This document shows, piece by piece, positions 2,944-59,225 of a stretch of DNA of 64,000 nt. How positions within the stretch are numbered: position 1 is the first letter of the stretch; the number at the start of each line of letters is the position of its first letter. The translations under genes and the position numbers were made by a program. This DNA is from an uncultured Pseudomonadota bacterium (GTDB lineage: Bacteria > Pseudomonadota > Alphaproteobacteria > Rs-D84): NCBI GenBank assembly GCA_900320405.1, contig OOHM01000002.1:236461-300460 (forward strand), written 5' to 3'. The notes beneath the pieces were generated by a model. That model was not told where the DNA came from. It ran no database searches and saw nothing but the letters and a program-made list of their open reading frames with translations.

Positions 2944-3059
2944 CGTCATCCCGGCGTAGGCCGGGATCTCTTTGATTTACGACGAGACTGAAGGGGTCCC
3001 GACTGTATCACCCAAAAAATGCTGTGCATTTTTCGGGACCCGATGTCGTCGGGATGACG
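2944..3059. repeat. Palindromic repeat element, family 1 ('CGTCATCCCGGCGTAGGCCGGGATC...GACGAGACTGAAGGGTCCCGAC...GTCGGGATGACG')
   Basis: Termini 'cgtcatcccg'/'cgggatgacg' are inverted repeats. A second copy lies at 53611-53686. It sits between convergent efp and the aldolase gene. Confidence 0.6.
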
Positions 3060-5044: not shown

Positions 5045-5974
5045 TTATTGAACTTTTGTATTTATATATCTTTTTGCAAATTCAAATTCGCGTTTATTGT
5101 GCCATTTTTCGACTTCGTCCACCGATGCGCGGTCGAAATTGACCTCTGGACGGCCGAATTTCTTTTTCATATCTTCGCGTGCCGCAATCATTTCATTGTA
5201 CACGATGCCGCGCAGTATGCTGTATTCGCGTGCAGGTGCTTCAAAGTCCCATTTGTATACAATGTTTTTTAATGCCGTGCCGTACGCCGCCAATAAATGC
5301 GCATTCATAAAATCGGCCAATGGTTTGTTTTCGTGTAATCTGTATTCTTCCCGAATATCACCCGCATTCAGGTTTCCAAACAACCATTTTACCATTTCGC
5401 GATTTAATTCTGCATAGTGTTGGTTATGCGCGTGCAATTTGTTCATAATGCCGTTCAATTGTTTTTGATATTTTCTAACATCGCTGCGCAGACCGATGCG
5501 TTCGGCTTGGTTGGTTAATCTGTACAAATCAATTATTGATGTGTTTGGATTAGGGGTCATAAAATATTCTTGATGAAATATTGTTGGTTTGCTTTTACCG
5601 ATTTCTTTGACCAACGCCCACGCGGCAAATCTTGATACCTCGGCATCAAAGTTTTTATCATCAATGACGCGGAAGTGTCCAGATGCCAATTTTGACATAC
5701 GTTCCGGATTGTTTTCTTTTAGTTTATTTGGTGTGTATGCACGCACAGCGTTATCCAATGTTATGGTGCTTTTATACGGTTCACCGTTAAGTCCGTCAAC
5801 GGTATTTAACAATTCGGATAATTTCCAGAAATCATTTGCGCCCGCCGCAATTTGTTGATCTGGGGCCCAATCTGGCCATATAGATAATTCGCGCCAGATA
5901 CGGGTGGTATTACGCCCGTTATTCAATTTGTCGAAGGTTTCCATATATTTATTCGGAATGATAATGTTTTCCAT
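5045..5974 (-). CDS. Hypothetical protein (309 aa), probably co-transcribed with the upstream RHH gene
   Basis: Long ORF 20 bp downstream of the 5994-6224 gene. No family recognised. An R-x5-H (REEYRLH) motif is noted but not diagnostic. Confidence 0.5.
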   Translation of the reverse strand: MENIIIPNKYMETFDKLNNGRNTTRIWRELSIWPDWAPDQQIAAGANDFWKLSELLNTVDGLNGEPYKSTITLDNAVRAYTPNKLKENNPERMSKLASGHFRVIDDKNFDAEVSRFAAWALVKEIGKSKPTIFHQEYFMTPNPNTSIIDLYRLTNQAERIGLRSDVRKYQKQLNGIMNKLHAHNQHYAELNREMVKWLFGNLNAGDIREEYRLHENKPLADFMNAHLLAAYGTALKNIVYKWDFEAPAREYSILRGIVYNEMIAAREDMKKKFGRPEVNFDRASVDEVEKWHNKREFEFAKRYINTKVQ

Positions 5975-5993
5975 TTTTATTCCTTTTGGTTTT

Positions 5994-6224
5994 TTATTGT
6001 TTGTTGTTGTCTTCGGTATTCGCCAATGAAAACAGTACAGACGAAATTAGCGACTGGTACGGGACATGTTGCGTTGCCGCCAATTCTTTTAACCGGTCCA
6101 GTATCGGTCGGGGAATGCGCATATTGATAACCGCATCCGATTTATTGAATGCACGGTATGCAGCATATTCCCGCAGAAGGGATTCTATGTTCATAACAAA
6201 AAGTTGTTGCATAACGTTTGGCAT
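5994..6224 (-). CDS. BrnA/CopG-like ribbon-helix-helix antitoxin-family protein
   Basis: 'MRIPRPILDRLKELAATQHVPYQSLISSVL' matches the BrnA-antitoxin pattern (R-I-x-L...pYQtlI). 76 aa. No BrnT-like ORF upstream. Confidence 0.5.
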   Translation of the reverse strand: MPNVMQQLFVMNIESLLREYAAYRAFNKSDAVINMRIPRPILDRLKELAATQHVPYQSLISSVLFSLANTEDNNKQ

Positions 6225-6517
6225 TTTTACCTCTATACATTACTCAATACAACCGTCTTCACAAGCCACTATACCATTGTATTTACAATTGTCAATACAT
6301 TTGTATAAACACCAGTATTTACGGGCGTGTTGGCGTGTGTATAGTGGTTTGTATGGCGCAGAAATCCGGGAAAAAATTATGATACAAAAATTTTTATTGT
6401 GTTGGTTTTCTGGGTGGTGTTTTACGATGAATTTTGGCTATTTGGGGGCTTGCACTTTGTGTATGTATGTTCTAAAATGCGAATCGGTTTAAGGAAATAT
6501 ACAGGAAAGGATTTCTT

Positions 6518-7840
6518 ATGTTTAGAAAGGTTTTATATATGGCGGCGGCCATATTTGCGTTTTGTATGCCGGTGGCGCGTGCGGAATTAAAGGTTGATAT
6601 TGTTGCCGGTGCGGCGGACCCCATTTCGGTTGCAATTCAAAAGTTTGAGGTTGCCGGTGGCGCATCCACCGCCGATGCGGCGACGATACGCAGTGTGGTC
6701 GAGGCGGACCTGAAACGGACCGGATTATTTCACATTGTTAACCACGATGCGTTCCCGGAATTTGTAAAGATGGACGCGATGCCGGCGTTTAAGTCTTGGG
6801 CGGCCATCAAAGCGGCGGTGTTGGTGCAATCCAAATTGACCAAGAAATCGGATGGTAAATACCAATTAGATTTCTATGTTTGGGATGTTGCGGGCCAAGA
6901 ACAGATAGAAGCGCAAAGTCTGGCCGCATCAAAGAAGTCTGTACGGCGGTTGGGACATATTATGGCGGACGCCATTTATGAAAGATTAACGGGCGAGGTT
7001 GGATATTTCGATACCCAGATTGTATTTATTGCCGAAACTGGCCCGATTGACCGGCGCACTAAGCGTATGGCGATTATGGACCAAGACGGATATGGTATGC
7101 GGTATCTGTCGGATGCGAAAACATTTGTTATGTCGCCGCATTTTTCGCCGAATATGCAATCGATAGTGTTCTTGTCATACTATAACGACGACCCGATGGT
7201 TTGGATTTTGGATTTGAACACGGGTGCGCAACGCAGGTTAGGGCAATTTGGTGGTATGAACTTTGCGCCACGGTTTTCCCCAGATGGATCGCGTGTGGCG
7301 TTGTCTTTGGTGAAAAACGGGATTACACATATATATGAATACGATATAGAAAACAATTACTTGAAACAGTTGACGACGGGCAATTCGATTAACACCAGTC
7401 CGTCTTATTCCCCGGACGGTCGAAAAATCGCGTTCAATTCAGACCGCGGCGGGTCCCAGCAGATTTATGTCCTGGACGTGGAGTCCGGCGCGGTAGAACG
7501 CATTACATACGGGGCGGGGCGGTATGCGACCCCGGCGTGGTCACCGGACGGGCAATTTATTGCCTTTACGAAAATGGCGGATGACACATTCTATGTTGGG
7601 GTGATGGATCCGCGGGGCAAAAACGAAAAGATTTTGGCGGGCGGTTGGTTTATGGAGGCTCCGTCTTGGGCGCCGGGTTCGCGTCGTGTGGTATATTATG
7701 AAACCGAACGGACGGACGACAATATGGAACGCGTCAGTCACATTCGCAGTGTCGATATCACCGGGCAAAATATATATGACATAGATTTGCCGGACGGTGT
7801 GAATGGTTTGGAACCAACATGGTCGCCACGGTTGCCGTAA
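6518..7840 (+). CDS. tolB: Tol-Pal system beta-propeller protein TolB
   Basis: Signal peptide. Repeated 'SPDG..IAF' beta-propeller blades (SPSYSPDGRKIAFNSDRGGSQQIYVLDV; TPAWSPDGQFIAFT). 440 aa. Confidence 0.9.
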   Translation: MFRKVLYMAAAIFAFCMPVARAELKVDIVAGAADPISVAIQKFEVAGGASTADAATIRSVVEADLKRTGLFHIVNHDAFPEFVKMDAMPAFKSWAAIKAAVLVQSKLTKKSDGKYQLDFYVWDVAGQEQIEAQSLAASKKSVRRLGHIMADAIYERLTGEVGYFDTQIVFIAETGPIDRRTKRMAIMDQDGYGMRYLSDAKTFVMSPHFSPNMQSIVFLSYYNDDPMVWILDLNTGAQRRLGQFGGMNFAPRFSPDGSRVALSLVKNGITHIYEYDIENNYLKQLTTGNSINTSPSYSPDGRKIAFNSDRGGSQQIYVLDVESGAVERITYGAGRYATPAWSPDGQFIAFTKMADDTFYVGVMDPRGKNEKILAGGWFMEAPSWAPGSRRVVYYETERTDDNMERVSHIRSVDITGQNIYDIDLPDGVNGLEPTWSPRLP

Positions 7841-29350: not shown

Positions 29351-29749
29351 ATGAGGATTCCAATTTTAACATTCGGTGCAATTGCATCAATATTAACAAT
29401 CAATTCAGTTATCGCAGATACAACCGTCACATCAAAAAACTATGTTGATGCCGAAGTTGCCAAAAAACAAAACACGATACCGGTGGCGGGCACGAATACC
29501 GCGAACCCGGGGACATCGGTTGTTATGTATACCAATACGGCGGGGACGGTTGGCGAACGCGGAATATACAGTGGCGGAACATATACGGCCGGGACGGATG
29601 CGAACAATTTGGTGACGGCGTCTGCGTTAAATGGCGCGGTAAACAATATTCCGACAATTACGACATCAAAACTGACCTGTATGGACAGTCCCGATTGTAC
29701 ACTGTGGACGGTTGCCGACCAAGAAGTATATGGGGAAGGTAACAATTAA
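29351..29749 (+). CDS. Secreted 'VTSKNYVD' family protein (expression-type copy)
   Basis: The first about 75 nt and the leader are near-identical to 23168. 'ADTTVTSKNYVDAEVAKKQNTIP'. C-terminal 'KLTCMDSPDCTLWTVADQEVYG'. Confidence 0.6.
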   Translation: MRIPILTFGAIASILTINSVIADTTVTSKNYVDAEVAKKQNTIPVAGTNTANPGTSVVMYTNTAGTVGERGIYSGGTYTAGTDANNLVTASALNGAVNNIPTITTSKLTCMDSPDCTLWTVADQEVYGEGNN

Positions 29750-29774
29750 AGTTCCCCTCTGGCCAGGGGGGTGA

Positions 29775-30593
29775 TGTAGCGATAGCGAAAGCGGACGTGC
29801 GTGGGGTGCCAGTTCGACTGTGACCAGTCGGGATTATGTAGATAATGCACTTGCGACAAAGCAGGTAAAGATACCGTCCGCGGGGACGGCGGGTGCGACC
29901 GCGGGCGACAGTGTGATAACATACACGGCGTCATCTGGCGCAATTGGTGAACGCGGATTATTTACGGGTGGGAAATATAATGCAAATACGGACGGCGATA
30001 AAATGATAACCGCATCCGCATTAAATAATGCGTTTACGAACCTGCCGGAAACGGAAACCACAAAATTGACATGCACAGACAGCAATTGTTTACTGTATAA
30101 TATTATCACCCAAACCGCGTATGGCATAACGCCGTTTAACCCAGATGTCAGCATCCCCGGCACGTCGATGTGTTATCGCACACTAAGTGGTAGTGGCAGC
30201 GACCCTAATGGCTCATGCGGTGCGGATACATTATCATACCTGGGGTCGAGATATAATAAAAGTGGTAAATGGGGCGTTGTATTCCCCTATGGCGATATAA
30301 GCGGTATAAGCGTATGCAGTGCACAAAGTGGTACCTATCTGATCGCTGCGACGGATGCGCAAACCGCAATTCTTGATTCGGAATATGCGGCCCAGGCGGG
30401 TGTTGGCAAAGTGTACTCTGGCCAATTAGAGTGCTGGTGCAAGATGGAAAATCCTGTTGATTCGCGGTGGGTGTTCGAAAACTCGTACTCCGGGCATCCC
30501 ACTTCGGATTGTGTGGGCGGCTGTGCGAGCAGGTGCGCGTTCCAAGGCAAGAATGAAAAAAGATTCCGCGAGGCCGTCTTTGGGGCACAATGA
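29775..30593 (+). other. Start-less, signal-peptide-less paralogue of the VTSxYVD family (silent cassette or pseudogene)
   Basis: In frame after the stop at 29772-29774. No ATG; the only start candidate is GTG at 29820. Homology begins at '...STVTSRDYVDNALATKQVKIPSAG', the position just after the signal peptide in its paralogues. C-terminal 'KLTCTDSNCLLYNII' then a unique Cys-rich tail. Confidence 0.45.
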
Positions 30594-30639: not shown

Positions 30640-30880
30640 GTTTTCCTATCACCCCGTCGAAAAAACCGTCACCCCGTGGAAACACGGGGGCTCTTTATTC
30701 TCGCCGCGGTCCCGTCATCCCGACAGCCAGGCCCCAAAAAATTTGAAAAATTTTGTGGGTGGCATGGGTCGGGCCCCAGACGGAGCGACAGCAAACATTT
30801 ATTGTCTGCGACGCAGGTCTCGCCGTTGGCTCACACTGGGCCCCGGCCTGCGCCGGGGTGACGGAAGTTTAAAAAGGTTG
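30640..30880. repeat. Mosaic repeat block: family 1 fragment, family 2 palindrome (30731-30762) and family 3 element (30802-30868)
   Basis: 'ggccccaaaaaatttgaaaaattttgtgggtgg' palindrome. 'tctgcgacgcaggtctcgcc...ggccccggcctgcgccggggtgacgg' aligns with 10736-10795. Confidence 0.55.
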
Positions 30881-32775: not shown

Positions 32776-32852
<77 letters not shown>

Positions 32853-32895: not shown

Positions 32896-33131
32896 TTGGT
32901 TCGGTGTTAAGGATGAGAACCGTGGTTCGAAACCAAGTAGATTTTGCAAGCATCGGGCCCCACAAAATTTGAAAAATTTTGTGGGTGATAAATAGCGTAG
33001 CGAAATCGTCACGGGTTGCGCGCAGCCGGCATATAGTGCCGCGCGAGCGAATACGAGAATACAAAATTAGCAAAAATTTAAAAATTTATTGGAAATAAAT
33101 TTTTTAATTTTGATTATTGTGTATCGAGGCC

Positions 33132-34288: not shown

Positions 34289-34525
34289 ATTGTTTAATAA
34301 TTTTGCCATTTAATTATTTTACAGAAAAAACAAAAAAACGCCAATTGGCGCGGTGTGCACGGTATAATAATTTTTTCCGAATCGCACAATGTGCAATTTT
34401 ATCATATTTTTTTCGGTTTCGCAAAAATCTTTTTTCTTGAAATTCTGTTTTTTCAATAGGACAATATGCATAACTAGATAAGCGATTTTCTAGTTTCCGA
34501 TAAACAAAAAAGGAAAGGATAAATA

Positions 34526-35293
34526 ATGAAAAAAATTGCTTTAACATCTTTATTGGCTGTATTCGCGGCGGCGGGTGCACACGCGGCAAACGCGATTGAC
34601 GGTAATCCGTTGTATATGCCACGCGCGGGCCATTTCTATAGCGAAACCGCATTGTCTTCACATTCTGAACATGGCGAAGATTGGGCGTTGGGCGAAGAAT
34701 TTGGTTATGGTATTAACGATAAATTGGCAATCAATGTCAAAACCGGTGTGTCCGAACATGATTCTTTTGATGGATATTCATGGGATGATATGTCATTCAA
34801 TGTGACTGCACGCGTTTTTGAAGACCGTGGTTGGGTTGCCGATATCTATGGCGGATATGGTGTTGCGCCGGTTTGGGGTGATCATAGACCGTTCTTGGCC
34901 GAAGAAGATACATTTTATACATGGACGGCGGGTATCCGTGCGGGTTATATGACACCGGAATGGACCGTTGCCGGCTTGTTCGACTTTAATTACATTGGTG
35001 ACGAATCGTTTAATTGGGGTGATGAAGGCGGACATATGTTGCGTGCAGGTGTTATGGGTCAATACGTGATTGATTCCAATTGGAACCTGGTTGCAGATGC
35101 AATTTATACGGGTTGGACAGATGATGGTCCGAAAAACCGTGGTTCATGGGAAGGTTCGTTTGGTGTAAACTATAACTTTGATGCAACCAAATACATTGGT
35201 GCATGGGTTTCTGCCGGACTGGATCATTCAACAGGTGATTGGGAATGGGTCGATGGTGTCGGTTACGGTGTTAAGTTCGGTATAGAATTCTAA
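34526..35293 (+). CDS. Outer-membrane beta-barrel protein, paralogue 1
   Basis: Signal MKKIALTSLLAVFAAAGAHA. C-terminal 'GVKFGIEF'. About 45% identical to the next gene. Confidence 0.65.
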   Translation: MKKIALTSLLAVFAAAGAHAANAIDGNPLYMPRAGHFYSETALSSHSEHGEDWALGEEFGYGINDKLAINVKTGVSEHDSFDGYSWDDMSFNVTARVFEDRGWVADIYGGYGVAPVWGDHRPFLAEEDTFYTWTAGIRAGYMTPEWTVAGLFDFNYIGDESFNWGDEGGHMLRAGVMGQYVIDSNWNLVADAIYTGWTDDGPKNRGSWEGSFGVNYNFDATKYIGAWVSAGLDHSTGDWEWVDGVGYGVKFGIEF

Positions 35294-35357
35294 TATTGGC
35301 TGATGCATTTATGACACCGCCCGATTGGGCGGTGTTATTCTTGGTTATTATTTTTTT

Positions 35358-35387
35358 CTTGAAAAGATTCCCATTTATGGGTTAGAA
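35358..35387 (+). promoter_or_regulatory. Promoter TTGAAA-N18-TAGAAT plus downstream AACTAGT/ACTAGTT palindrome for OMP paralogue 2
   Basis: The promoter-like hexamers and the 'tttttcttgaaa' context are also present upstream of paralogue 1 (34431-34442). The palindrome is at 35394-35410. Confidence 0.45.
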
Positions 35388-35444
35388 TAGGGTTAACTAG
35401 TTGTACTAGTTCATGAACTTAAACAAACAATGAAAGGATAAATA

Positions 35445-36263
35445 ATGAAAAAAATTGCTTTGACATCTTTGTTGGCCATCGTTGCGGCGGCCGGCGCACA
35501 TGCGGCAAACACAATGGATGGTAATCCGTTGTATATGCCAAAGGCGGGTCATTTCTATAGCGAAACGTCTTTGGAATCTGCGACAAGCGCAACAAACGCG
35601 GTCGCATTGGGCGAAGAATTTGGTTATGGTATCACCGATCGTTTGTCAATCGGTTTGACCACATCTGTTGCCGAAGCCGATTGGTTCGATGGTAATTCTT
35701 GGAACGAATTGGGTGTTGATTTGAAATGGCGCATTATCAATGACAATGCATGGAAATTGGATTTCGTCGGCGCATATGCTATGAACCCGGTTTGGGGCGA
35801 TCATCGTCCGTTTATGGATAAAGATGACACAATGTATGCATGGGTTGCCGGTCTGCGCGGTGGTTATGTAACCGAAGATTGGACATTGTCTGCACACGCA
35901 AACTTCATCTATATGAACACAGAATCCTTTAACTGGGGCGATGACGATGCAAAAGTTGTTATTGACGATGTTGAAGGTGAATTCTGGGCGAATCATATGT
36001 TAAACCTGGGTGTTACCGGTCATTGGACAATGAGTGATATGTGGAGTGCGGTTGCATCTGCAGATTACTTCAAAGTCTTGGATCATTACAATTCTGTCGA
36101 AAATCGTGGTCATTGGACAATCGCGGCAGGTTTGAATATGAACTTGGATGACACCAAATATGTTGGTGCGTATATCAGCAAAGACATTGAACATACAGCC
36201 GCAGGTGAATGGACCGTCGAAGACGGCTTTGGTTTCGGTGTCAAATTCGGTATCGATTTCTAA
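35445..36263 (+). CDS. Outer-membrane beta-barrel protein, paralogue 2
   Basis: Signal MKKIALTSLLAIVAAAGAHA. C-terminal 'GVKFGIDF'. Its leader is near-identical to that of paralogue 1. Confidence 0.65.
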   Translation: MKKIALTSLLAIVAAAGAHAANTMDGNPLYMPKAGHFYSETSLESATSATNAVALGEEFGYGITDRLSIGLTTSVAEADWFDGNSWNELGVDLKWRIINDNAWKLDFVGAYAMNPVWGDHRPFMDKDDTMYAWVAGLRGGYVTEDWTLSAHANFIYMNTESFNWGDDDAKVVIDDVEGEFWANHMLNLGVTGHWTMSDMWSAVASADYFKVLDHYNSVENRGHWTIAAGLNMNLDDTKYVGAYISKDIEHTAAGEWTVEDGFGFGVKFGIDF

Positions 36264-50379: not shown

Positions 50380-50709
50380 ATGGCAAATTCGAATAAAAAA
50401 GATTATGTTGCACGTTTGAATATGGCCGATGTGGTACATGAACATCGTGTTTTTGATGTTTTTGTTAAGGTTGCCAAAATGTATCCAGATTTGGCGCCGG
50501 CTCTGTTCAATAAATATGTCGATTTTATTCTGAATAACAACAAAAGTGTTCTGGGTTACGCATTGGATAAACAACAATCGGTCGCAGAACGCATCGCAAA
50601 CGAAAATATCGGTTATTTTATCGGAAATTGTGAAAAGTTTGACGAACGCAAGTTCTTGTTCCAAATTTATCCGACAACATATCATCCGGTATTGGGTAGA
50701 GAGTTTTAA
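50380..50709 (+). CDS. Hypothetical 109-aa protein inserted in the spc operon between rpmD and rplO
   Basis: ATG 2 nt after the rpmD stop. No r-protein homology. Followed by small hairpins (tgcgga...tccgca; aactatatagtt). Confidence 0.45.
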   Translation: MANSNKKDYVARLNMADVVHEHRVFDVFVKVAKMYPDLAPALFNKYVDFILNNNKSVLGYALDKQQSVAERIANENIGYFIGNCEKFDERKFLFQIYPTTYHPVLGREF

Positions 50710-52593: not shown

Positions 52594-52741
52594 GTACGGT
52601 TTGCGTGAAACAAGTGGTTTGACTTTTGCGATAATTTATATAGAATTATTCGACAAAGGTGAATGTTCGGTGGCGGGTGTCATCGGGCGAAATGGCGGGG
52701 CGGGGTCGTCCCAAGGTAAAAAATAAAAAGGAAAAGTAAAA

Positions 52742-53119
52742 ATGGCACGTATAGCAGGTGTAAACATTCCGACAGAAAAACGTATCGAGGCCGCGCTGCA
52801 ATATATTCACGGCATCGGTCCGGCCAAGGCCGCACAAATCTGCAAAGATTTGAAATTGCGTGATGGTCTGCGCGCGAAAGATTTGACTGACGAGGATGTT
52901 GTTAAAATTTCGAACTATATCGAACAAAATTTCAAGGTCGAAGGTGATGTTCGCCGTGAAGTTGCAATGAACATTAAACGTTTGCAAGATTTGAAAACAT
53001 ATCGCGGTATTCGTCATCGTAACCGTTTGCCCGTTCGTGGTCAACGGACCCAAACAAATGCGCGTACACGTAAAGGTAAACGCGTCGTCGTCGCGGGTTC
53101 TGCGGTCAAGGGTAAATAA
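52742..53119 (+). CDS. rpsM: 30S ribosomal protein S13
   Basis: '[14 protein letters not shown]' S13. Confidence 0.95.
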
Positions 53120-53183: not shown

Positions 53184-53561
53184 ATGGCAATAAATAAAAA
53201 GAAAGTTGTAAAAAAAGTATCTCATGGCATCGCACATGTCGTTGCCACGAACAATAACACACGTATAACAATTACGGATCAATCGGGTGCCGTGTTGACA
53301 TGGGCAACCGCGGGCGCAAATAATTTCAAAGGCGCCAAAAAATCGACCCCATATGCCGCGACGGTTGTTGCAGACGCCGTTGGTAAACGGGTTGCCGAAA
53401 TGGGCATGAAAACGGTTGATGTCCTTATGCGTGGTATTGGCCAGGGTCGTGAATCCGCCGTTCGTGGTTTGGCAAATGCCGGCCTGGTGGTACAGAGTAT
53501 TACCGATACAACACGTATTCCGCACAACGGATGCAGACCAAAGAAAGTCCGTCGTGTGTAA
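53184..53561 (+). CDS. rpsK: 30S ribosomal protein S11
   Basis: 'GIAHVVATNNNTRITITD' S11. Confidence 0.95.
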   Translation: MAINKKKVVKKVSHGIAHVVATNNNTRITITDQSGAVLTWATAGANNFKGAKKSTPYAATVVADAVGKRVAEMGMKTVDVLMRGIGQGRESAVRGLANAGLVVQSITDTTRIPHNGCRPKKVRRV

Positions 53562-53588
53562 AAAAATCCGCCAAACGGCGGATTTTTT

Positions 53589-53686
53589 CGTCATCCCGGT
53601 ATATTTATCTCGTCATCCCGGCGTAGGCCGGGATCTTTTTAGCCTTCGACGAGACTGAATGGGTCCCGACTTTCGTCGGGATGACG
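53589..53686. repeat. Palindromic repeat element family 1, second copy (plus a partial terminus at 53589-53599)
   Basis: 'cgtcatcccggcgtaggccgggatc...gacgagactgaatgggtcccgac...gtcgggatgacg' aligns with 2944-3059. Confidence 0.6.
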
Positions 53687-53724
53687 TTTTTTAGTAACCA
53701 TTAAATATTTTTGTCAAATAAAAC

Positions 53725-53752
53725 TTGACAACGAATTTTTGTGTCCTATAAT
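53725..53752 (+). promoter_or_regulatory. Strong sigma70-like promoter TTGACA-N16-TATAAT
   Basis: Drives the inserted gene at 53780. Confidence 0.5.
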
Positions 53753-53779
53753 ATTGACGAATAACCAAAAGGGACACAA

Positions 53780-54100
53780 ATGAAAAAAACAATTTTGACT
53801 TCTTTGTTTGCTGCGATTATCGCCGCGAATGCCAATGCATCTGATGGTGGTCTGTACGCAGAAACAGAAACATATACAAACCGCGTTCGTTACAATACGG
53901 TTGAATACACTGCACCGGTCGAACAACGCGTTGCCCCGGTGGCGACATGCAATTCTTGCGCGCAGCCGGTTCGCGTTAAAACCCATACCGAAGTAATTGA
54001 TCATTACCAGGTTTATCGTCCGGTCACAGTTTATGAACCGGCGGGTACATATGCGGAACGCCGTGTTGTTCGCAACACATGCAACCGTTGCAACTACTAA
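53780..54100 (+). CDS. Small secreted Cys-containing protein (106 aa)
   Basis: Signal MKKTILTSLFAAIIAANANA. CNSC...CNRC pairs. Followed by a terminator at 54131-54158. Confidence 0.55.
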   Translation: MKKTILTSLFAAIIAANANASDGGLYAETETYTNRVRYNTVEYTAPVEQRVAPVATCNSCAQPVRVKTHTEVIDHYQVYRPVTVYEPAGTYAERRVVRNTCNRCNY

Positions 54101-54130
54101 TTTAATTCAAGTTTGTGTAAGTAGTGTTCA

Positions 54131-54158
54131 TACGCGGGGCAAATGCCCCGCGTGTTTT
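54131..54158 (+). terminator. Rho-independent terminator ('acgcggggcaaatgccccgcgt' plus T-run)
   Basis: The same hairpin sequence recurs after rplQ at 58922-58950. Confidence 0.55.
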
Positions 54159-54230
54159 TATAAAATTTCCCTTTTATTTTTCCCTTTTATTTGTTTGTTT
54201 TTTATGTTAAAATTATGAGACATAAGAGAG

Positions 54231-56210
54231 ATGAAATTTTCATTGGGTATTTTGTGTGGTGTTTTGTGTGCCGCGTTTATTGCGCCGGCGGTGGCGAATG
54301 TTGCCACAACGGCGGGGTCTAATTTGACCGCATATCACGGTACGGGTTCAACGAACAACAATCAATGGAACACTTTGATGACCGGGCGTGGCGGAATGTC
54401 AGCGACCGCGGCGGATGCGAATTTTGGAAACTGTAATGCGGTGATTCTGCGGTGTGCGTCGCCAAAATGCAGTGGTGGCGGGTGTTATGATATGAATGTT
54501 GCGCGTCCGATTGTTGCGGGTTGTGTGAATTCGAACGCGTCGTGCAAGAAACATGGTGATGCGTTGATTGATTATATCACTGCCCAGATTGTGGCACAAT
54601 CAAACGCAAAGCAGCAAGAACAGGCGAACGCCGTCGCGTTGGCCCAGGCACAGGCCGAAGCCCAGGCCGCCGCATCTGCGGCCGCCGCCGCGCAAAGTAA
54701 TGCCCAAATGCAGCAAATGCAACAACAGATGCAGCAAATGCAGGAACAGATGGCGGAATCTATGTCCGCGATGCAGCAACAAATGGCGGCGCAAAGCGAA
54801 TCGCAAAACGCACAAATTCAATCTGCGTTGGACGCGCAACGCGAAAATATGGCGGCATATAATGCACCGGCAAATAATGGCGATACGGGTGCGGTGATTG
54901 CGGGACTGGAGGGTCTGTCGGTGGCGGAACAATTGGCGGCGAAAAACGGAATCAGTGCCGATATTTTGGTGCGCGAACAAATGGGTGGCAAAATTGAAAC
55001 CGCAATAGAAGACGCAATGACCGCGATGAAAGATTTAAAGGGTAAATTGGATGCGGTTTTGGAATACGCGGGTTGTGACCCGTCGGCAACGAACTGCACG
55101 GGGCCAAAGCGCGTGAAAAAATTCAAAGATTTGGCAAATGAATTCTTTGACCCGTATGAAAATGTTGTGGAAAATGTCTATGATGCGTTGATATTGGCAA
55201 TGACATTGGGTATAGATGTGAACGACGTTATTATGTTGTTGTCTGATTCATGTAATATGTGGGGTAAATACGTGTGTAATTCTTGTCAGTATAGCAATCC
55301 ATTGCCGGCGGGTTGTACATGCTTTGGTGAAGATGACAGAAGTAATTGTTATTATCGTGTTGAAACAGACAACGAAGGCAAGGTTTCCAAAAATCAAAAA
55401 AATTGCCGATTGGTTAGCATCTTAAATGAAAAAGATACGGTATGGCGCGAATGGATTGACGCGAACACCGGTATGACCGGTTCGACCCAGGTTGCATGTG
55501 CGTCTGATGTTGTTATGAATATACCAATGTTCCGCGGAATGAAGAAAAATGCAACAATGGATATTGATAACCTGCGCCGGTTGGTGAACCAAGATTCTTA
55601 TTCTTGCCGTGGAAAAATGGACAGTGGCAATTTTGTATTGACCAATCGTGATGCGATTGAAGATTGTGGTTTGAATATGTGCGCGGTAAATCCAAACGAA
55701 AATTCCGAGGCATATAAACTGCTGTACGATACTGTGCGCACCCGTAAATTACCCAAGGTTGACAAGACGGCAAAATCGTTGTGCTGGGAAACTTTCGATG
55801 ACGCCCCCCGCAGTGTTAAGAACATAGACCCGACGGTGGTTTCGATTTTGGATGCAGGCTGTGCTGTATTTAATTTCTCTCAGGAGTTGTGTGATAGCAG
55901 ACAAGACTGTATTTATGATTCCAATGCAAAAAAATGTGTTGCGAGTGCGGGATATAAAATAAGTGCTAAATCGATTTCCACTAGCGAAGCTATTGCAAAG
56001 TACGGTGTGGTAGATAAGTTAGAGGCACGAGATGTTGTTGTGGATAAGAATCTGTCTGCGGGTGATATGCCAGATATGTCGAAGTTTAGGAATTTTGCAG
56101 ATTGTTTAGCAAGTATGACGTTGTATTTTGCTGATATGAATGATGGGTATACGAATGCCAATGCGGGCAGTGAAGCGCAGGACTTTTGCAATCAATGGTA
56201 TAGTAGATGA
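54231..56210 (+). CDS. Large secreted Cys-rich protein with Q/A-rich coiled-coil segment (659 aa)
   Basis: Signal MKFSLGILCGVLCAAFIAPAVA. N-terminal C-x7-C-x4-C-x5-C module. 'QMQQMQQQMQQMQEQM' tract. About 35 Cys. Confidence 0.6.
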   Translation: MKFSLGILCGVLCAAFIAPAVANVATTAGSNLTAYHGTGSTNNNQWNTLMTGRGGMSATAADANFGNCNAVILRCASPKCSGGGCYDMNVARPIVAGCVNSNASCKKHGDALIDYITAQIVAQSNAKQQEQANAVALAQAQAEAQAAASAAAAAQSNAQMQQMQQQMQQMQEQMAESMSAMQQQMAAQSESQNAQIQSALDAQRENMAAYNAPANNGDTGAVIAGLEGLSVAEQLAAKNGISADILVREQMGGKIETAIEDAMTAMKDLKGKLDAVLEYAGCDPSATNCTGPKRVKKFKDLANEFFDPYENVVENVYDALILAMTLGIDVNDVIMLLSDSCNMWGKYVCNSCQYSNPLPAGCTCFGEDDRSNCYYRVETDNEGKVSKNQKNCRLVSILNEKDTVWREWIDANTGMTGSTQVACASDVVMNIPMFRGMKKNATMDIDNLRRLVNQDSYSCRGKMDSGNFVLTNRDAIEDCGLNMCAVNPNENSEAYKLLYDTVRTRKLPKVDKTAKSLCWETFDDAPRSVKNIDPTVVSILDAGCAVFNFSQELCDSRQDCIYDSNAKKCVASAGYKISAKSISTSEAIAKYGVVDKLEARDVVVDKNLSAGDMPDMSKFRNFADCLASMTLYFADMNDGYTNANAGSEAQDFCNQWYSR

Positions 56211-56944
56211 AACAAAAAATGAAAATTTTTAATGTTGTTTTTGGTGTGCTGATATGCCTGGCGCCGGTTGGTGCGCGTGCCGCCGGTGATTTTGAATGTG
56301 GTTATTTTAATCCGGCGTTTGGTCTGTGTTCAACTCATTCGCATAATATTGGTGCGATGGACGATAAAACAAATTTACCGGTGAATCCGACAAAGTCGGA
56401 AGAAACCGCACAAATGAATGATGTTATCGCGTTGAAGTCTACGGTTATTGCGCAACAATTAAAAGAACAATATGATGCGTTGAACGCCGTTATTAAACGT
56501 TTCAAAACCCAATTGGAAAAGGCCGTTTTGACCAGTAAGATAGAGGTCATCACCGGCAACACCGCATCCGGCAATTCTGGCGGTGGCGCATCTGCATCCA
56601 GTTCATATAACAACAATGGATTGGCCAATGCCGAAGATTGTGATAATGTTTTAGATATGGCGAATGTTTATGATTGTCTTAATCGTAATTTAACCAAGAT
56701 TTCCCAGGCGGTGGATAATGATTTATCTGGTGCACGTAAACAGTTGAAGAATGATATTAAGGTAATGGACGGTTACAAGGTTTGTGGTGATTCCACATCT
56801 GATTGTATTAGTGATGCAAGTTGCAAAAGTATAGATGGTAGTAAAAACAACATAAAAGAATGTGTCAAAGCGTTACAAAGAAGACTAAAGGTTGCAAAAA
56901 ACGATTTTGATAGAAAGAATGCCCAGGCGCGTTATGGCCGTTAG
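56207..56944 (+). CDS. Secreted Cys-containing coiled-coil protein (245 aa)
   Basis: Overlaps the previous stop (atga). Signal peptide. Gly/Ser tract. C-x4-C-x5-C motifs. Confidence 0.55.
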   Translation: MKQKMKIFNVVFGVLICLAPVGARAAGDFECGYFNPAFGLCSTHSHNIGAMDDKTNLPVNPTKSEETAQMNDVIALKSTVIAQQLKEQYDALNAVIKRFKTQLEKAVLTSKIEVITGNTASGNSGGGASASSSYNNNGLANAEDCDNVLDMANVYDCLNRNLTKISQAVDNDLSGARKQLKNDIKVMDGYKVCGDSTSDCISDASCKSIDGSKNNIKECVKALQRRLKVAKNDFDRKNAQARYGR

Positions 56945-56973
56945 AAAACCGCTGCTTAAAATTACACTATTTC

Positions 56974-57001
56974 TTGACTTTTCCTAAAAAACGCTATAAA
57001 A
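56974..57001 (+). promoter_or_regulatory. Putative promoter for rpoA (TTGACT-N15/16-TATAAA)
   Basis: rpoA is separated from rpsK by the 3.5-kb insertion and appears to carry its own promoter-like hexamers. Confidence 0.4.
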
Positions 57002-57072
57002 TGCGCGGGCACGTAAGGGTTTATGTGCGGCCGATTGGCGAAAATGATAAACTAAGCTAAAAGGAAATTTAA

Positions 57073-58101
57073 ATGATTGAAAAAAATTGGATGACTTTAA
57101 TCAAGCCAAAAAAACTGAATATCACAACCGATGAACACAATCCGAATATGGCGACATTGGTCGCAGAACCGTTGGAAAAGGGTTTCGGTTTAACACTGGG
57201 GACCGCGTTGCGTCGTGTGTTGCTGTCTTCACTTCAGGGTTGCGCACCGTTGTATGTCAAAATTGATGGCGTTCAACACGAATTTTCCAGTATCCAGGGT
57301 GTTCACGAAGATGTCGCGGATATCTTATTAAACCTGAAAGGTGTTTATTTCAAGGCAAATTCCGAAGGTCAGCACAAGGCCACACTGCGTGTGTCCGGTC
57401 CGGCCGTGGTCAAGGCGGGTATGATTGAAACATCCAGTGCAATCGAAATTATGAATCCGGATGCGGAAATCTGCACATTGGACAAAGGTGCCGAATTAGA
57501 TATGGAAATTACATTGGGTACGGGTCGTGGTTATGTTCCGGCGACCGCGCATGCCGATGGTTTGCCGTTGGGCGTAATTCCGGTTGACTCGATTTTCTCG
57601 CCGATTTTGAATGTGGCGTCTAATGTTTCCGAAACGCGTGTTGGCCAATCGACCGACTTTGATAAATTGGAATTGACCGTCAAAACAAACGGCAGTGTTT
57701 CACCCGAAGACGCAATCGCGTTTGCGGCACGCATTTTGACCGACCAATTGACCGTGTTTATCAACTTTGAAGATCCGGCACAAATCAATGCGCCGACCGA
57801 AGAAGAGGTTGCCAAAGATGCATTGCAATTCGATCCAAAATTGTTGAAACGCGTTGATGAATTGGAATTGTCTGTTCGTGCAAATAACTGTTTGAAGAAC
57901 GACAAGATTAATTGGTTGGGCGAATTGGTTCAAAAGACCGAGGCCGATATGTTAAAGACCCCGAACTTTGGACGCAAATCGTTGAACGAAATCAAAATCC
58001 AACTTGAGGCAATGGGGCTTGGCCTGGGGATGGAAGTTCCGGGTTGGCCACCAGAAAATATTGCGGAGTTGGCGAAAAAATACGAAGACCCATACAAATA
58101 A
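57073..58101 (+). CDS. rpoA: DNA-directed RNA polymerase alpha subunit
   Basis: 342 aa. '[12 protein letters not shown]...[22 protein letters not shown]' is the alpha NTD. The CTD is '[12 protein letters not shown]'. Confidence 0.95.
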
Positions 58102-58323
58102 AACAATTTATATGGGCTCTTGTCGCGATTGCCGGTTCTTATGTAGGTCGACTACACTGCGAACCGTCAATCGCATCCAATAACCTCATATAAATTGTTT
58201 TCTTGAAATTGGCAATTTATATGAGAAAAACGCGTGTTGCTGGGGCGCGCTCCGGGGCACGAAATCTGGTAAAATCCCACTTGTAAAAGAGCAGGGCGGA
58301 AACAAAATAAAGGAGTAACCGAT

Positions 58324-58899
58324 ATGAGACACCAGAAATCAGGTCGCACATTTAATCGCGACACAAATGCACGCAAGGCTTTGTTTATCGGCCTGGCGAA
58401 AAACCTTATTGAAAAAGAACAAATTAAAACAACTTTGCCCAAGGCCAAAGATTTACGCAGTGTCGTAGAAAAATTGGTTACCCGTGCCAAGGTTGATACC
58501 GTTGCAAATCGCCGGTTGGTTGCGGCCGAATTGGGTAATGCAAGTGCGGCAACCGTGAAAAAGTTGTTTACCGTTTTAGGACCGCGCTATGCCAAACGCC
58601 CGGGCGGATATACCCGCGTGTTAAAGGCTGGTTTCCGTTATGGTGATGCGGCACCGATGGCAATAATTGAATTTATTGACCGCGATGTGAATGCGAAAAA
58701 GCCGGTTGCAAAACCGACCGTCGCGGCGGCGGATGCAAAAGAAGCGGTGGCGACAGAAGCGGAAGCCAAGAAAGCCGACAAAGCGCCAAAGGCCGAAAAA
58801 GCGACAGCAAAAAAAGTCGCAACAAAGGAACCTGCGGCGAAAAAAGCAACCGGGGCAACAAAGACCGTTGCGGTGAAACGTCGCGCCACAGGCAAATAA
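58324..58899 (+). CDS. rplQ: 50S ribosomal protein L17 with Ala/Lys-rich C-terminal extension
   Basis: '[21 protein letters not shown]' L17 core of about 125 aa, plus about 65 aa of an AKKA-rich tail. Confidence 0.85.
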
Positions 58900-58970: not shown

Positions 58971-59010
58971 CCATCGGGCCCCACAAAATTTGAGAAAATT
59001 TTGTGGGTGA
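58971..59010. repeat. Family 2 palindrome 'CATCGGGCCCCACAAAATTTGAGAAAATTTTGTGGGTGATAA'
   Basis: Near-identical copies lie at 32951-32990 and 30731-30762. Confidence 0.6.
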
Positions 59011-59225
59011 TAATCGGAGGGGTGGCGCCGAACGGCGACGGGGTGGGGTATTAATTATGTAATGTGTTTTTATTAACCCCCACCTCTCGGCGTTCCGCCG
59101 TACTCCTCCGTGGGAGGAGAACTTGGTCTGTATCGGCGCATACCGTCATCTCTTCGGTCTCGTTGTTAATCAAAGAGACCCCGCTTTTCAGCGGGGTGAC
59201 GAACCGTAATGCGGGCAATTTTGTT

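Follow-up and report, generated by a model that had tools for sequence, protein, structure and literature searches.

Few bacterial gene orders are as stable as that of the S10-spc-alpha cluster of ribosomal protein genes. We analysed the alpha operon of this cluster in a stretch of 64,000 nucleotides (nt), referred to here as the window (contig OOHM01000002.1 of assembly GCA_900320405.1, positions 236,461 to 300,460), whose source is an uncultured alphaproteobacterium of the rumen, Candidatus Enterousia (order Rs-D84). In the window, rpsK and rpoA lie 3511 nt apart, and the space between them holds three genes, designated here as o106, o659 and o245 and collectively as the cassette (Table 1). 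Cysteine makes up 3.7-4.2% of the residues of their products, and the o659 stop and the o245 start overlap by 4 nt (ATGA, 56207-56210). The original prediction, made from the sequence without database searches, had described three Cys-rich genes of these lengths, their overlap, a palindromic element and promoters, and each was found where it was expected; the two intrinsic terminators, after rpsK and after o106, were not part of that description and are the most important additions to it. An intact alpha operon would have rpsK followed directly by rpsD or rpoA, with no terminator or promoter in between. The window has neither property: three genes intervene, a conserved terminator follows rpsK and a promoter-like site precedes rpoA.

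Table 1. Genes and predicted signals of the rpsK-rpoA region and its flanks, in window positions (aa, amino acids; REP, repetitive extragenic palindromic; MITE, miniature inverted-repeat transposable element; ORF, open reading frame).
Feature	Position	Strand	Description
rpsM	52742-53119
rpsK (ribosomal protein S11)	53184-53561	+	Pfam Ribosomal_S11, E 1e-37; closes the upstream ribosomal protein transcription unit
Intrinsic terminator after rpsK	53563-53590	+	12-bp stem between an A-run and a U-run; predicted from sequence and fold
Palindromic repeat element, REP/MITE type	53611-53686	not applicable	Near-perfect hairpin of about 75 nt, fold z = -9.0
o106 promoter, TTGACA-16-TATAAT	53725-53752	+	12/12 match
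o106	53780-54100	+	106 aa, 4 Cys; small protein of predicted exported type, orphan family
Intrinsic terminator after o106	54130-54155	+	11-bp stem with 8 GC pairs, then a T-run
Extended -10 element TGnTAAAAT of the o659-o245 unit	54205-54213	+	Recognised by conservation; putative function
o659	54231-56210	+	659 aa, 28 Cys; predicted exported, orphan family
o245	56207-56944	+	245 aa, 9 Cys; predicted exported partner of o659
rpoA-rplQ promoter-like site, TTGACT-17-TAAAAT	56974-57002	+
rpoA 5' leader	57009-57064	+	Variable hairpin 57009-57028; stem-loop 57031-57064; motif GGYGAAAATRATAAACTAARC at 57037-57057
rpoA	57073-58101	+	Pfam RNA_pol_A_bac, RNA_pol_A_CTD, RNA_pol_L
rplQ (L17)	58324-58899	+	ORF; annotated Ribosomal_L17 in locus L001; same orientation as rpoA
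Further palindromic element copy	59152-59201	not applicable	Far side of the o106...rplQ block
o977	59226-62159	-	38 Cys; large predicted exported orphan, no Pfam match

Candidatus Enterousia has genomes of less than 1 Mb in which most biosynthetic pathways are missing, and a dependence on partner cells has been proposed for it; genes for cell wall and shape, encoding RodA, MreB and the peptidoglycan transpeptidase MrdA, are reported from the lineage (PMC12306168). We compared the locus across relatives with an rpoA-anchored scan that took one genome per GTDB species and yielded 80 loci, in all of which rpsM, rpsK, rpoA, rplQ and the cassette proteins were placed by tblastn. Their titles mostly name uncultured Alphaproteobacteria or proteobacteria (14 read "Candidatus Enterousia"), and the source is rumen or gut wherever the title gives one. 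A metagenome scan anchored on o659 provided a second view, also of 80 loci. Species relationships were taken from a neighbour-joining tree of rpoA alone, and junctions were counted in the 50 species-level representatives with rpsK and rpoA visible on one strand.

The rpsK product is 96-99% identical among relatives. The distance from rpsK to rpoA is 28-208 nt in 8 of the 50 representatives (among them L078 and L081, the most distant of all), and 0.5-9.7 kb in the remaining 42, with heterogeneous content. The window order, rpsK-o106-o659-o245-rpoA, is found in five loci (the window species and four others). An o106 homologue on the opposite strand, approximately 200 nt from rpoA, is present in 16 loci, a same-strand o106 without o659 in six, and unrelated content spanning 0.5-9.5 kb in 15. 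Four further loci, beyond the 50, have rpsM-rpsK inverted downstream of rplQ, and in several loci o977 or o760 stands immediately 5' of rpoA. When the ORFs in the gaps were clustered, they fell into dozens of families. Two of these are further Cys-rich families, with 7% and 8% Cys, and rpsB-tsf and a glycosyltransferase are also represented. Even other translation genes have moved into the junction: in one species (locus L026), rpsB and tsf sit between rpsK and rpoA (5891-7745). The neighbouring junctions are constant: rpsM and rpsK are 47-194 nt apart, rpmD and rplO about 80 nt apart in 31 of 35 loci, and rpoA and rplQ approximately 100-640 nt apart in all loci but one. The rpsK-rpoA junction is thus a rearrangement hotspot across the genus, and rpoA-rplQ, kept together in 77 of 78 loci despite changing flanks, behaves as a single movable module. 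Since rpsK and rpoA adjoin in the outgroups and in some members of the order, the contiguous state is ancestral and the 3.5-kb gap derived, as the original prediction had proposed. Homologues of the cassette genes are far from universal at this position, only the closest relatives carrying them there.

The window-type order was seen only in loci with at least 94% RpoA identity and at least 56% o659 identity (L003, L004, L005, L013, L086, L088, L091, L094, L095, L100 and L163). In other species, a few kb separate o106 and o659-o245 from the junction, and their neighbours are rplQ, o977 and o760. In L011 the order is rpsK> <o106 ... rpoA> rplQ> o659> o245> <o977 (arrows give gene direction), in L030 the o659-o245 pair lies 2.5 kb past rplQ, and in L084, with the order <o316 o760> o106> o659> o245>, o106 is not near ribosomal genes. 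For o659 homologues of 46% identity or less, the o659-anchored scan found no ribosomal genes within 7 kb. The commonest layout in the genus is rpsM> rpsK> (variable) rpoA> rplQ> o977> <o316 o760>. In most of the genus, rplQ has a conserved neighbourhood of varying order and orientation (L001, 14996-21560), made up of o977, o760 (62336-63985 on the minus strand, truncated where the window ends) and o316, which resembles a membrane protein, and a homologue of o977 adjoins rplQ or rpoA in most loci, in either orientation. Both o977 and o760 encode large predicted exported Cys-rich orphans.

The predicted transcription signals of the cassette are conserved along with its genes. The TTGACA-16-TATAAT sequence upstream of o106 is the sole 12/12 match in an 11-kb scan, against an estimated 0.004 or so expected by chance. 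It is kept at the orthologous place in eight loci, and the best promoter match has a TTGACA -35 in 29 of 34 members of the o106 family. The promoter and leader (CTTGACAAC...TCCTATAAT...TTGACGAATAACCAAAAGGG) are near-identical in L003, L004, L005 and L013, in L011, where the gene is inverted, and in L084, where it lies away from ribosomal genes; a hairpin equivalent to the o106 terminator occurs in L003, L005, L013 and L084. Upstream of o659, an extended -10 of the form TGnTAnAAT lies about 20 nt 5' of AGAGAGATG, and both are kept in eight of eight contexts (L001, L003, L004, L005, L013, L084, L014 and L011). The 4-nt overlap suggests that o659 and o245 are translationally coupled. The cassette would therefore consist of two self-contained units, o106 with its promoter and terminator and o659-o245 with its extended -10. 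The terminator after rpsK is kept in L003, L004, L005 and L013 with compensatory changes in the stem and, given its flanking A-run and U-run, is possibly bidirectional. The inserted genes had been supposed to lie in a highly transcribed context. Because the cassette units carry their own signals wherever they are located, and because a strong, conserved terminator follows rpsK, borrowing of transcription from the ribosomal operon is unsupported.

Comparable signals precede rpoA. Nearly all of some 75 Enterousia loci have a site of the form TTGACT/TTGACA-17-TAnAAT approximately 100 nt (77-109) 5' of rpoA, regardless of the upstream content. The leader contains a 21-nt motif, GGYGAAAATRATAAACTAARC, which occurs once in the window and is invariant across 78 loci save for three degenerate (Y/R) positions (alignment A3). 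A stem of 3-5 bp closes a 16-nt loop lying within this motif, and two more pairs reach the GG of the Shine-Dalgarno sequence. Over the leader pairing, 85.9% of cells are paired and slid controls gave 12-53%. Double changes occupy 23 cells, whereas shuffled alignments had 10.5 ± 2.8 (0 of 500). The closing stem itself is 86-88% paired; it is short (3-5 bp), and the sequences compared are related. The leader has no Rfam match at E ≤ 1. These features suggest that it is a candidate cis-regulatory RNA of the rpoA-rplQ unit in Rs-D84, outside the families of Rfam. An alternative reading of ATG-ATA-AAC-TAA in the leader as a conserved upstream ORF was rejected, since about 40% of the species have ATA in place of the ATG.

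The distribution of these signals bears on the order of events. In L033, L072 and L015, rpsK and rpoA are adjacent (gaps of 138, 113 and 208 nt), yet a terminator hairpin abuts the rpoA promoter and the leader is present. In L071, L077 and L079 (RpoA identity of 80-84%) the leader motif occurs and a clear promoter is absent, and the outgroups L078 and L081 have neither. Because promoter and leader occur even where rpsK and rpoA adjoin, the alpha operon was probably insulated before the insertions came. The idea that rpoA had acquired a promoter of its own is borne out insofar as a conserved promoter-like site is present; the insertion as its cause is not, as the site also stands in the three adjacent-gene loci.

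Taken together, these observations are best explained by the movement of native units into an rpsK-rpoA junction that had previously been split, and we consider this account likely. In the ancestor of the lineage, the alpha operon would have been cut between rpsK and rpoA, with rpsK gaining a terminator and rpoA-rplQ gaining a promoter and the conserved 5' leader. A break at this place would no longer have disturbed expression, and the junction would have become a permissive breakpoint. Species would then have come to differ in the genes held there, or in having inversions with one end at this point. Within a single sub-clade from the rumen, inversion or translocation on a local scale would have brought o106 and o659-o245 between rpsK and rpoA, through recombination possibly aided by species-specific palindromic repeats at module borders. 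The gene maps, the conserved signals and the native composition are direct observations, and the sequence of events, the mode of recombination, transcription itself and the part played by the proteins are inferred from them. We attempted to derive a stepwise inversion history from the gene maps and dropped it, as it involved too many events and the species tree was unreliable.

The original prediction had regarded the three genes as accessory, and a horizontally acquired island, in which foreign surface-protein genes were integrated into the alpha operon, is the explanation that would follow. It is consistent with the restriction of the position to a few close relatives, the palindromic repeat at the left border and the orphan status of the proteins. 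However, the composition of the cassette genes is native, their GC content (0.40-0.48), GC content at third codon positions (0.37-0.47) and synonymous codon likelihood lying within the range of 18 other genes of the window. Searches of Pfam, NCBIfam, PHROGs and PADLOC gave no match of the cassette proteins to integrase, transposase, phage or defence families. Flanking direct repeats and att-like repeats were not found around the cassette, and no tRNA gene lies nearby, the only one in the window being at 32776, 20 kb away. Homologues form at least 1359 clusters for o659, 165 for o245 and 137 for o106, all of them unnamed or hypothetical proteins from metagenome-assembled genomes (MAGs) of Alphaproteobacteria. 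Identities reach down to 32-41%, the three families co-occur in the same MAGs, and locus tags show adjacency in others (e.g. J6T57_02630/02635 and IJQ90_04810/04815). The families are conserved throughout the order and beyond, and patchiness is confined to their position and does not extend to their presence. Furthermore, the same genes, with their promoters, sit elsewhere in the same neighbourhood of other Enterousia species; the cassette therefore consists of native modules locally reshuffled, not of foreign DNA, and an accessory island is very unlikely.

It is also highly improbable that the cassette has belonged to the operon ancestrally, as a lineage-specific part transcribed together with the ribosomal protein genes. 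All genes do share one strand, and their order is stable inside the rumen sub-clade, but conserved terminators follow both rpsK and o106, each unit has a promoter of its own, and at this position the genes are missing from all outgroups and from the greater part of the genus. An assembly or binning chimera deserves mention, as all data come from metagenome assemblies. Its probability is negligible, given that an identical 659-aa protein is present on 13 metagenome contigs, some of 0.2-1 Mb, and that the gene order of the window recurs in independent assemblies from different studies and hosts (RUG cattle, water buffalo, yak and JGI rumen metagenomes). Selected repositioning, which is compatible with the movement of native units into a split junction, would mean that the cassette was fixed upstream of rpoA either because read-through from the o659 promoter reaches rpoA-rplQ or because the expression of envelope proteins becomes coupled to growth rate. 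A scan found no terminator-like site between o245 and rpoA, the Cys-rich o106, o977 and o760 are found next to rpoA-rplQ, variously arranged, across most of the genus, and the window order persists in many independent rumen assemblies. Nevertheless, rpoA retains its conserved promoter and leader in every context, and the very heterogeneous content of the junction suggests neutral turnover and not selection for a particular neighbour; we regard selected repositioning as unlikely.

Several points weigh against the account that we prefer. The adjacent-gene loci L015 and L033 are nested, in the single-gene tree, among species with insertions and may be secondary losses, which weakens the case for a split that preceded the insertions. 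The predicted promoters and terminators are consensus matches supported by conservation, and in the stretch from o245 to rpoA, where the scan gave no terminator, some read-through from the cassette into rpoA could occur. The palindromic elements are species-specific, which makes their role in recombination a conjecture. As for the proteins, the suggested envelope role draws on N-termini judged by eye and on neighbourhoods from partly redundant loci, and the structural models of o659 and o245 are of low confidence (see below), with no characterised homologous family.

All three cassette proteins have N-termini that, by eye, resemble Sec signal peptides, with putative cleavage at MKKTILTSLFAAIIAANANA/SD, MKFSLGILCGVLCAAFIAPAVA/NV and MKQKMKIFNVVFGVLICLAPVGARA/AG, and export would be expected from these sequences. 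The proteins had been called secreted surface proteins; the signal-peptide-like N-termini agree with the former term, and location at the surface is unproven. In o106, the conserved core is PVRVKTHTEVIDHYQVYxPVTVYxPAGTYxERRV, followed by a C-terminal CxxC (alignment A5). The mature o659 protein begins with an invariant motif (NVATTAGSNLTAYNG..NNN.WN). A Cys-rich domain comes next, then a coiled coil rich in Ala, Gln and Met, and the C-terminal region is again Cys-rich. Its alignment (A1) has 66 invariant columns, 13 of them Cys, and a conserved central block, EYAGCD...C.GPKRVKKFK...SCN.WGKY.C. The o245 protein is equivalent to the C-terminal domain of fused o659 homologues of 735-858 aa (e.g. 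residues 546-707 of P0110, E 3e-29), and an o245-like sequence, separate or fused, follows o659 in nearly all of the 80 metagenome loci, down to 32% identity. The two are adjacent or fused in nearly all loci, and we take the fusions as a Rosetta-stone argument that they act together. The distant o659-o245 loci stand beside lpxD-fabZ (10 and 9 loci, respectively), PagL (8), an OmpA-family gene (7) and large orphans, in varying arrangements. On these grounds we propose, tentatively, that o659 and o245 may form an exported structural complex of the envelope, outer-membrane or periplasmic. The o106, o659-o245, o977 and o760 genes are probably highly expressed.

Scans of Pfam, NCBIfam, PHROGs and PADLOC gave no useful match for the three cassette proteins, for o977, o760 and o316, or for a 109-aa ORF of the spc operon described below. 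Matches to TFIIA, ZorA and Cas12a (E of about 3e-4 for Cas12a) were discarded as noise from low complexity or coiled coils. Alignment A1, used as a profile against solved structures, gave a best E of 0.13, and Foldseek against the PDB returned coiled-coil matches only, with E above 1. AlphaFold2 modelled o659 at a mean predicted local distance difference test score (pLDDT) of 57 and a predicted template modelling score of 0.28, and o245 at a pLDDT of 63, both too poor for fold assignment; in o245, only a C-terminal helical bundle (residues 140-245) reached a pLDDT of 66-89. A BLAST comparison of the window proteins found no paralogy among o659, o977 and o760.

The palindromic element downstream of the rpsK terminator has three copies in the window, all intergenic: those listed in Table 1 and one at 2944-3004 (89% identity). 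With several copies, a stable hairpin and intergenic placement, it has the properties of REP- or MITE-like repeats. It is missing at the same place in sister species. A role for these elements as substrates of cross-species recombination was rejected, since BLAST matches were confined to the same species apart from one match of 23 nt. An Rfam match of the element to RAGATH-10 (31 bits against a threshold of 41.2) was likewise set aside as hairpin similarity. A second palindromic family (GGCCCCACAAAATTTGAAAAATTTTGTGGGTG) is present at 30730-30761, 32956-32987 and 58978-59009, the last copy lying just past the rplQ terminator. The sister species L004, L011, L013 and L084 have another intergenic repeat family, with runs of TAGTGGTTAGTG / CACTAACCACTA around a hairpin, at the same module borders. 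In L004, an extra 127-aa ORF (5852-6235) lies between duplicated copies of the rpsK terminator.

Further features were observed in and around the ribosomal cluster of the window. In the spc operon, a 109-aa ORF (50380-50709, plus strand) lies between rpmD and rplO, starting 3 nt past the rpmD stop; it has neither a recognisable signal peptide nor a family match. Among the 35 loci with both rpmD and rplO, it is present in two, namely the window species and L013 (66% identical), and it also occurs in the metagenome loci L086 and L100. In 31 of the 33 loci without it, the rpmD-rplO gap is about 80 nt (11-107). This ORF is a true sporadic insertion within an operon, rarer than the cassette between rpsK and rpoA. 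The secY gene is followed directly by rpsM, 148 nt away (52594-52741), adk, infA and rpmJ being missing at that spot. Just 5' of rpsM, at 52678-52774 on the plus strand, the sequence matches Alpha_RBS (RF00140), the S4-binding leader of intact alpha operons, at 28.3 bits (E 0.0016) where gathering requires 38, even though the operon does not include rpsD (S4). An Rfam search at E ≤ 1 across 52.5-59.3 kb gave no match above gathering. The 222-nt spacer between rpoA and rplQ (58102-58323, plus strand) folds into two long hairpins, a strong structure (z = -4.7), and has no match in Rfam, including the published L17 leader. Elsewhere in the window, a region of about 430 nt and the signal-peptide-bearing gene downstream of it are locally duplicated (23003-23695 and 29184-30593); the copies are separated by 6.2 kb and share 82-91% identity. 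At 34501-36263, a tandem pair of paralogues (255 and 272 aa) shows 50% identity and near-identical 5' ends.

The hotspot in Rs-D84, a whole order of gut symbionts with reduced genomes, illustrates how the stability of gene order may be lost: transcriptional insulation comes first, after which anything can land at the junction. For the biology of these uncultured organisms, the cargo proteins matter more than the gene order. The products of o106, o659-o245, o977 and o760 are candidates for envelope or contact structures in a lineage thought to live off partner cells (PMC12306168), and the rpoA leader, conserved as it is, may be a new regulatory RNA, a possibility open to testing. A joint reading, which we find rather doubtful, would make the junction in Rs-D84 a dedicated and insulated 'landing pad' through which genes for exported Cys-rich envelope proteins have repeatedly been shuffled. 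A bidirectional terminator would close it off towards rpsK, and the conserved promoter and leader towards rpoA. The GGYGAAAATRATAAACTAARC stem-loop, partly covering the ribosome-binding site, would then be an autoregulatory RNA of a kind not described before, with L17 or the alpha subunit as its ligand, that evolved to replace the control lost when the operon was split.

The typical alphaproteobacterial alpha operon, seen in L078 and L081, is rpsM-rpsK-rpoA-rplQ, without rpsD. The window has the same four genes in the same order and on the same strand, and rpsD is likewise not in its alpha operon; it differs in the added rpsK terminator, the rpoA promoter and leader, and the 3.5 kb of other genes. 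In chlamydiae, which are host-associated bacteria with reduced genomes, OmcA and OmcB are a small and a large exported cysteine-rich envelope protein encoded side by side. The cassette resembles them, by analogy only, in having small and large Cys-rich neighbours in a reduced-genome bacterium. Unlike OmcA and OmcB, however, the cassette proteins are predicted to be largely helical or coiled-coil, they show no sequence similarity to the chlamydial pair and no Pfam family reaches threshold; membership of the OmcA/OmcB families was rejected for want of a Pfam match for any of the three. The palindromic element of the window is comparable to REP, Rickettsia palindromic element (RPE) and MITE-like repeats, being likewise a short hairpin with several intergenic copies, here just past a terminator, and its copies are species-specific.

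In Alphaproteobacteria and Actinobacteria, an L17 ribosomal-protein leader is situated immediately 5' of rplQ (Eckert and Weinberg 2020, PMC7247131). Both it and the rpoA leader are candidate cis-regulatory RNAs of the rplQ transcription unit; the rpoA leader differs in sitting 5' of rpoA and in falling outside Rfam. Where insertions into ribosomal gene clusters have been studied, the inserted genes were usually native and the new order was often not retained in all descendants; the cases detailed lie between operons (rpoBC-str, str-S10 and rplL-rsmC), in Gammaproteobacteria and Bacilli (PMC8046335). The Rs-D84 locus is like these cases in showing insertions and rearrangements of native cargo in an otherwise conserved cluster, and differs from them in that the break falls inside the alpha operon of an alphaproteobacterial order, at a junction that is hypervariable (42 of 50 species). 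It thus belongs to a known kind of event, the insertion of native genes into a conserved ribosomal cluster, and is a fairly ordinary change of gene order.

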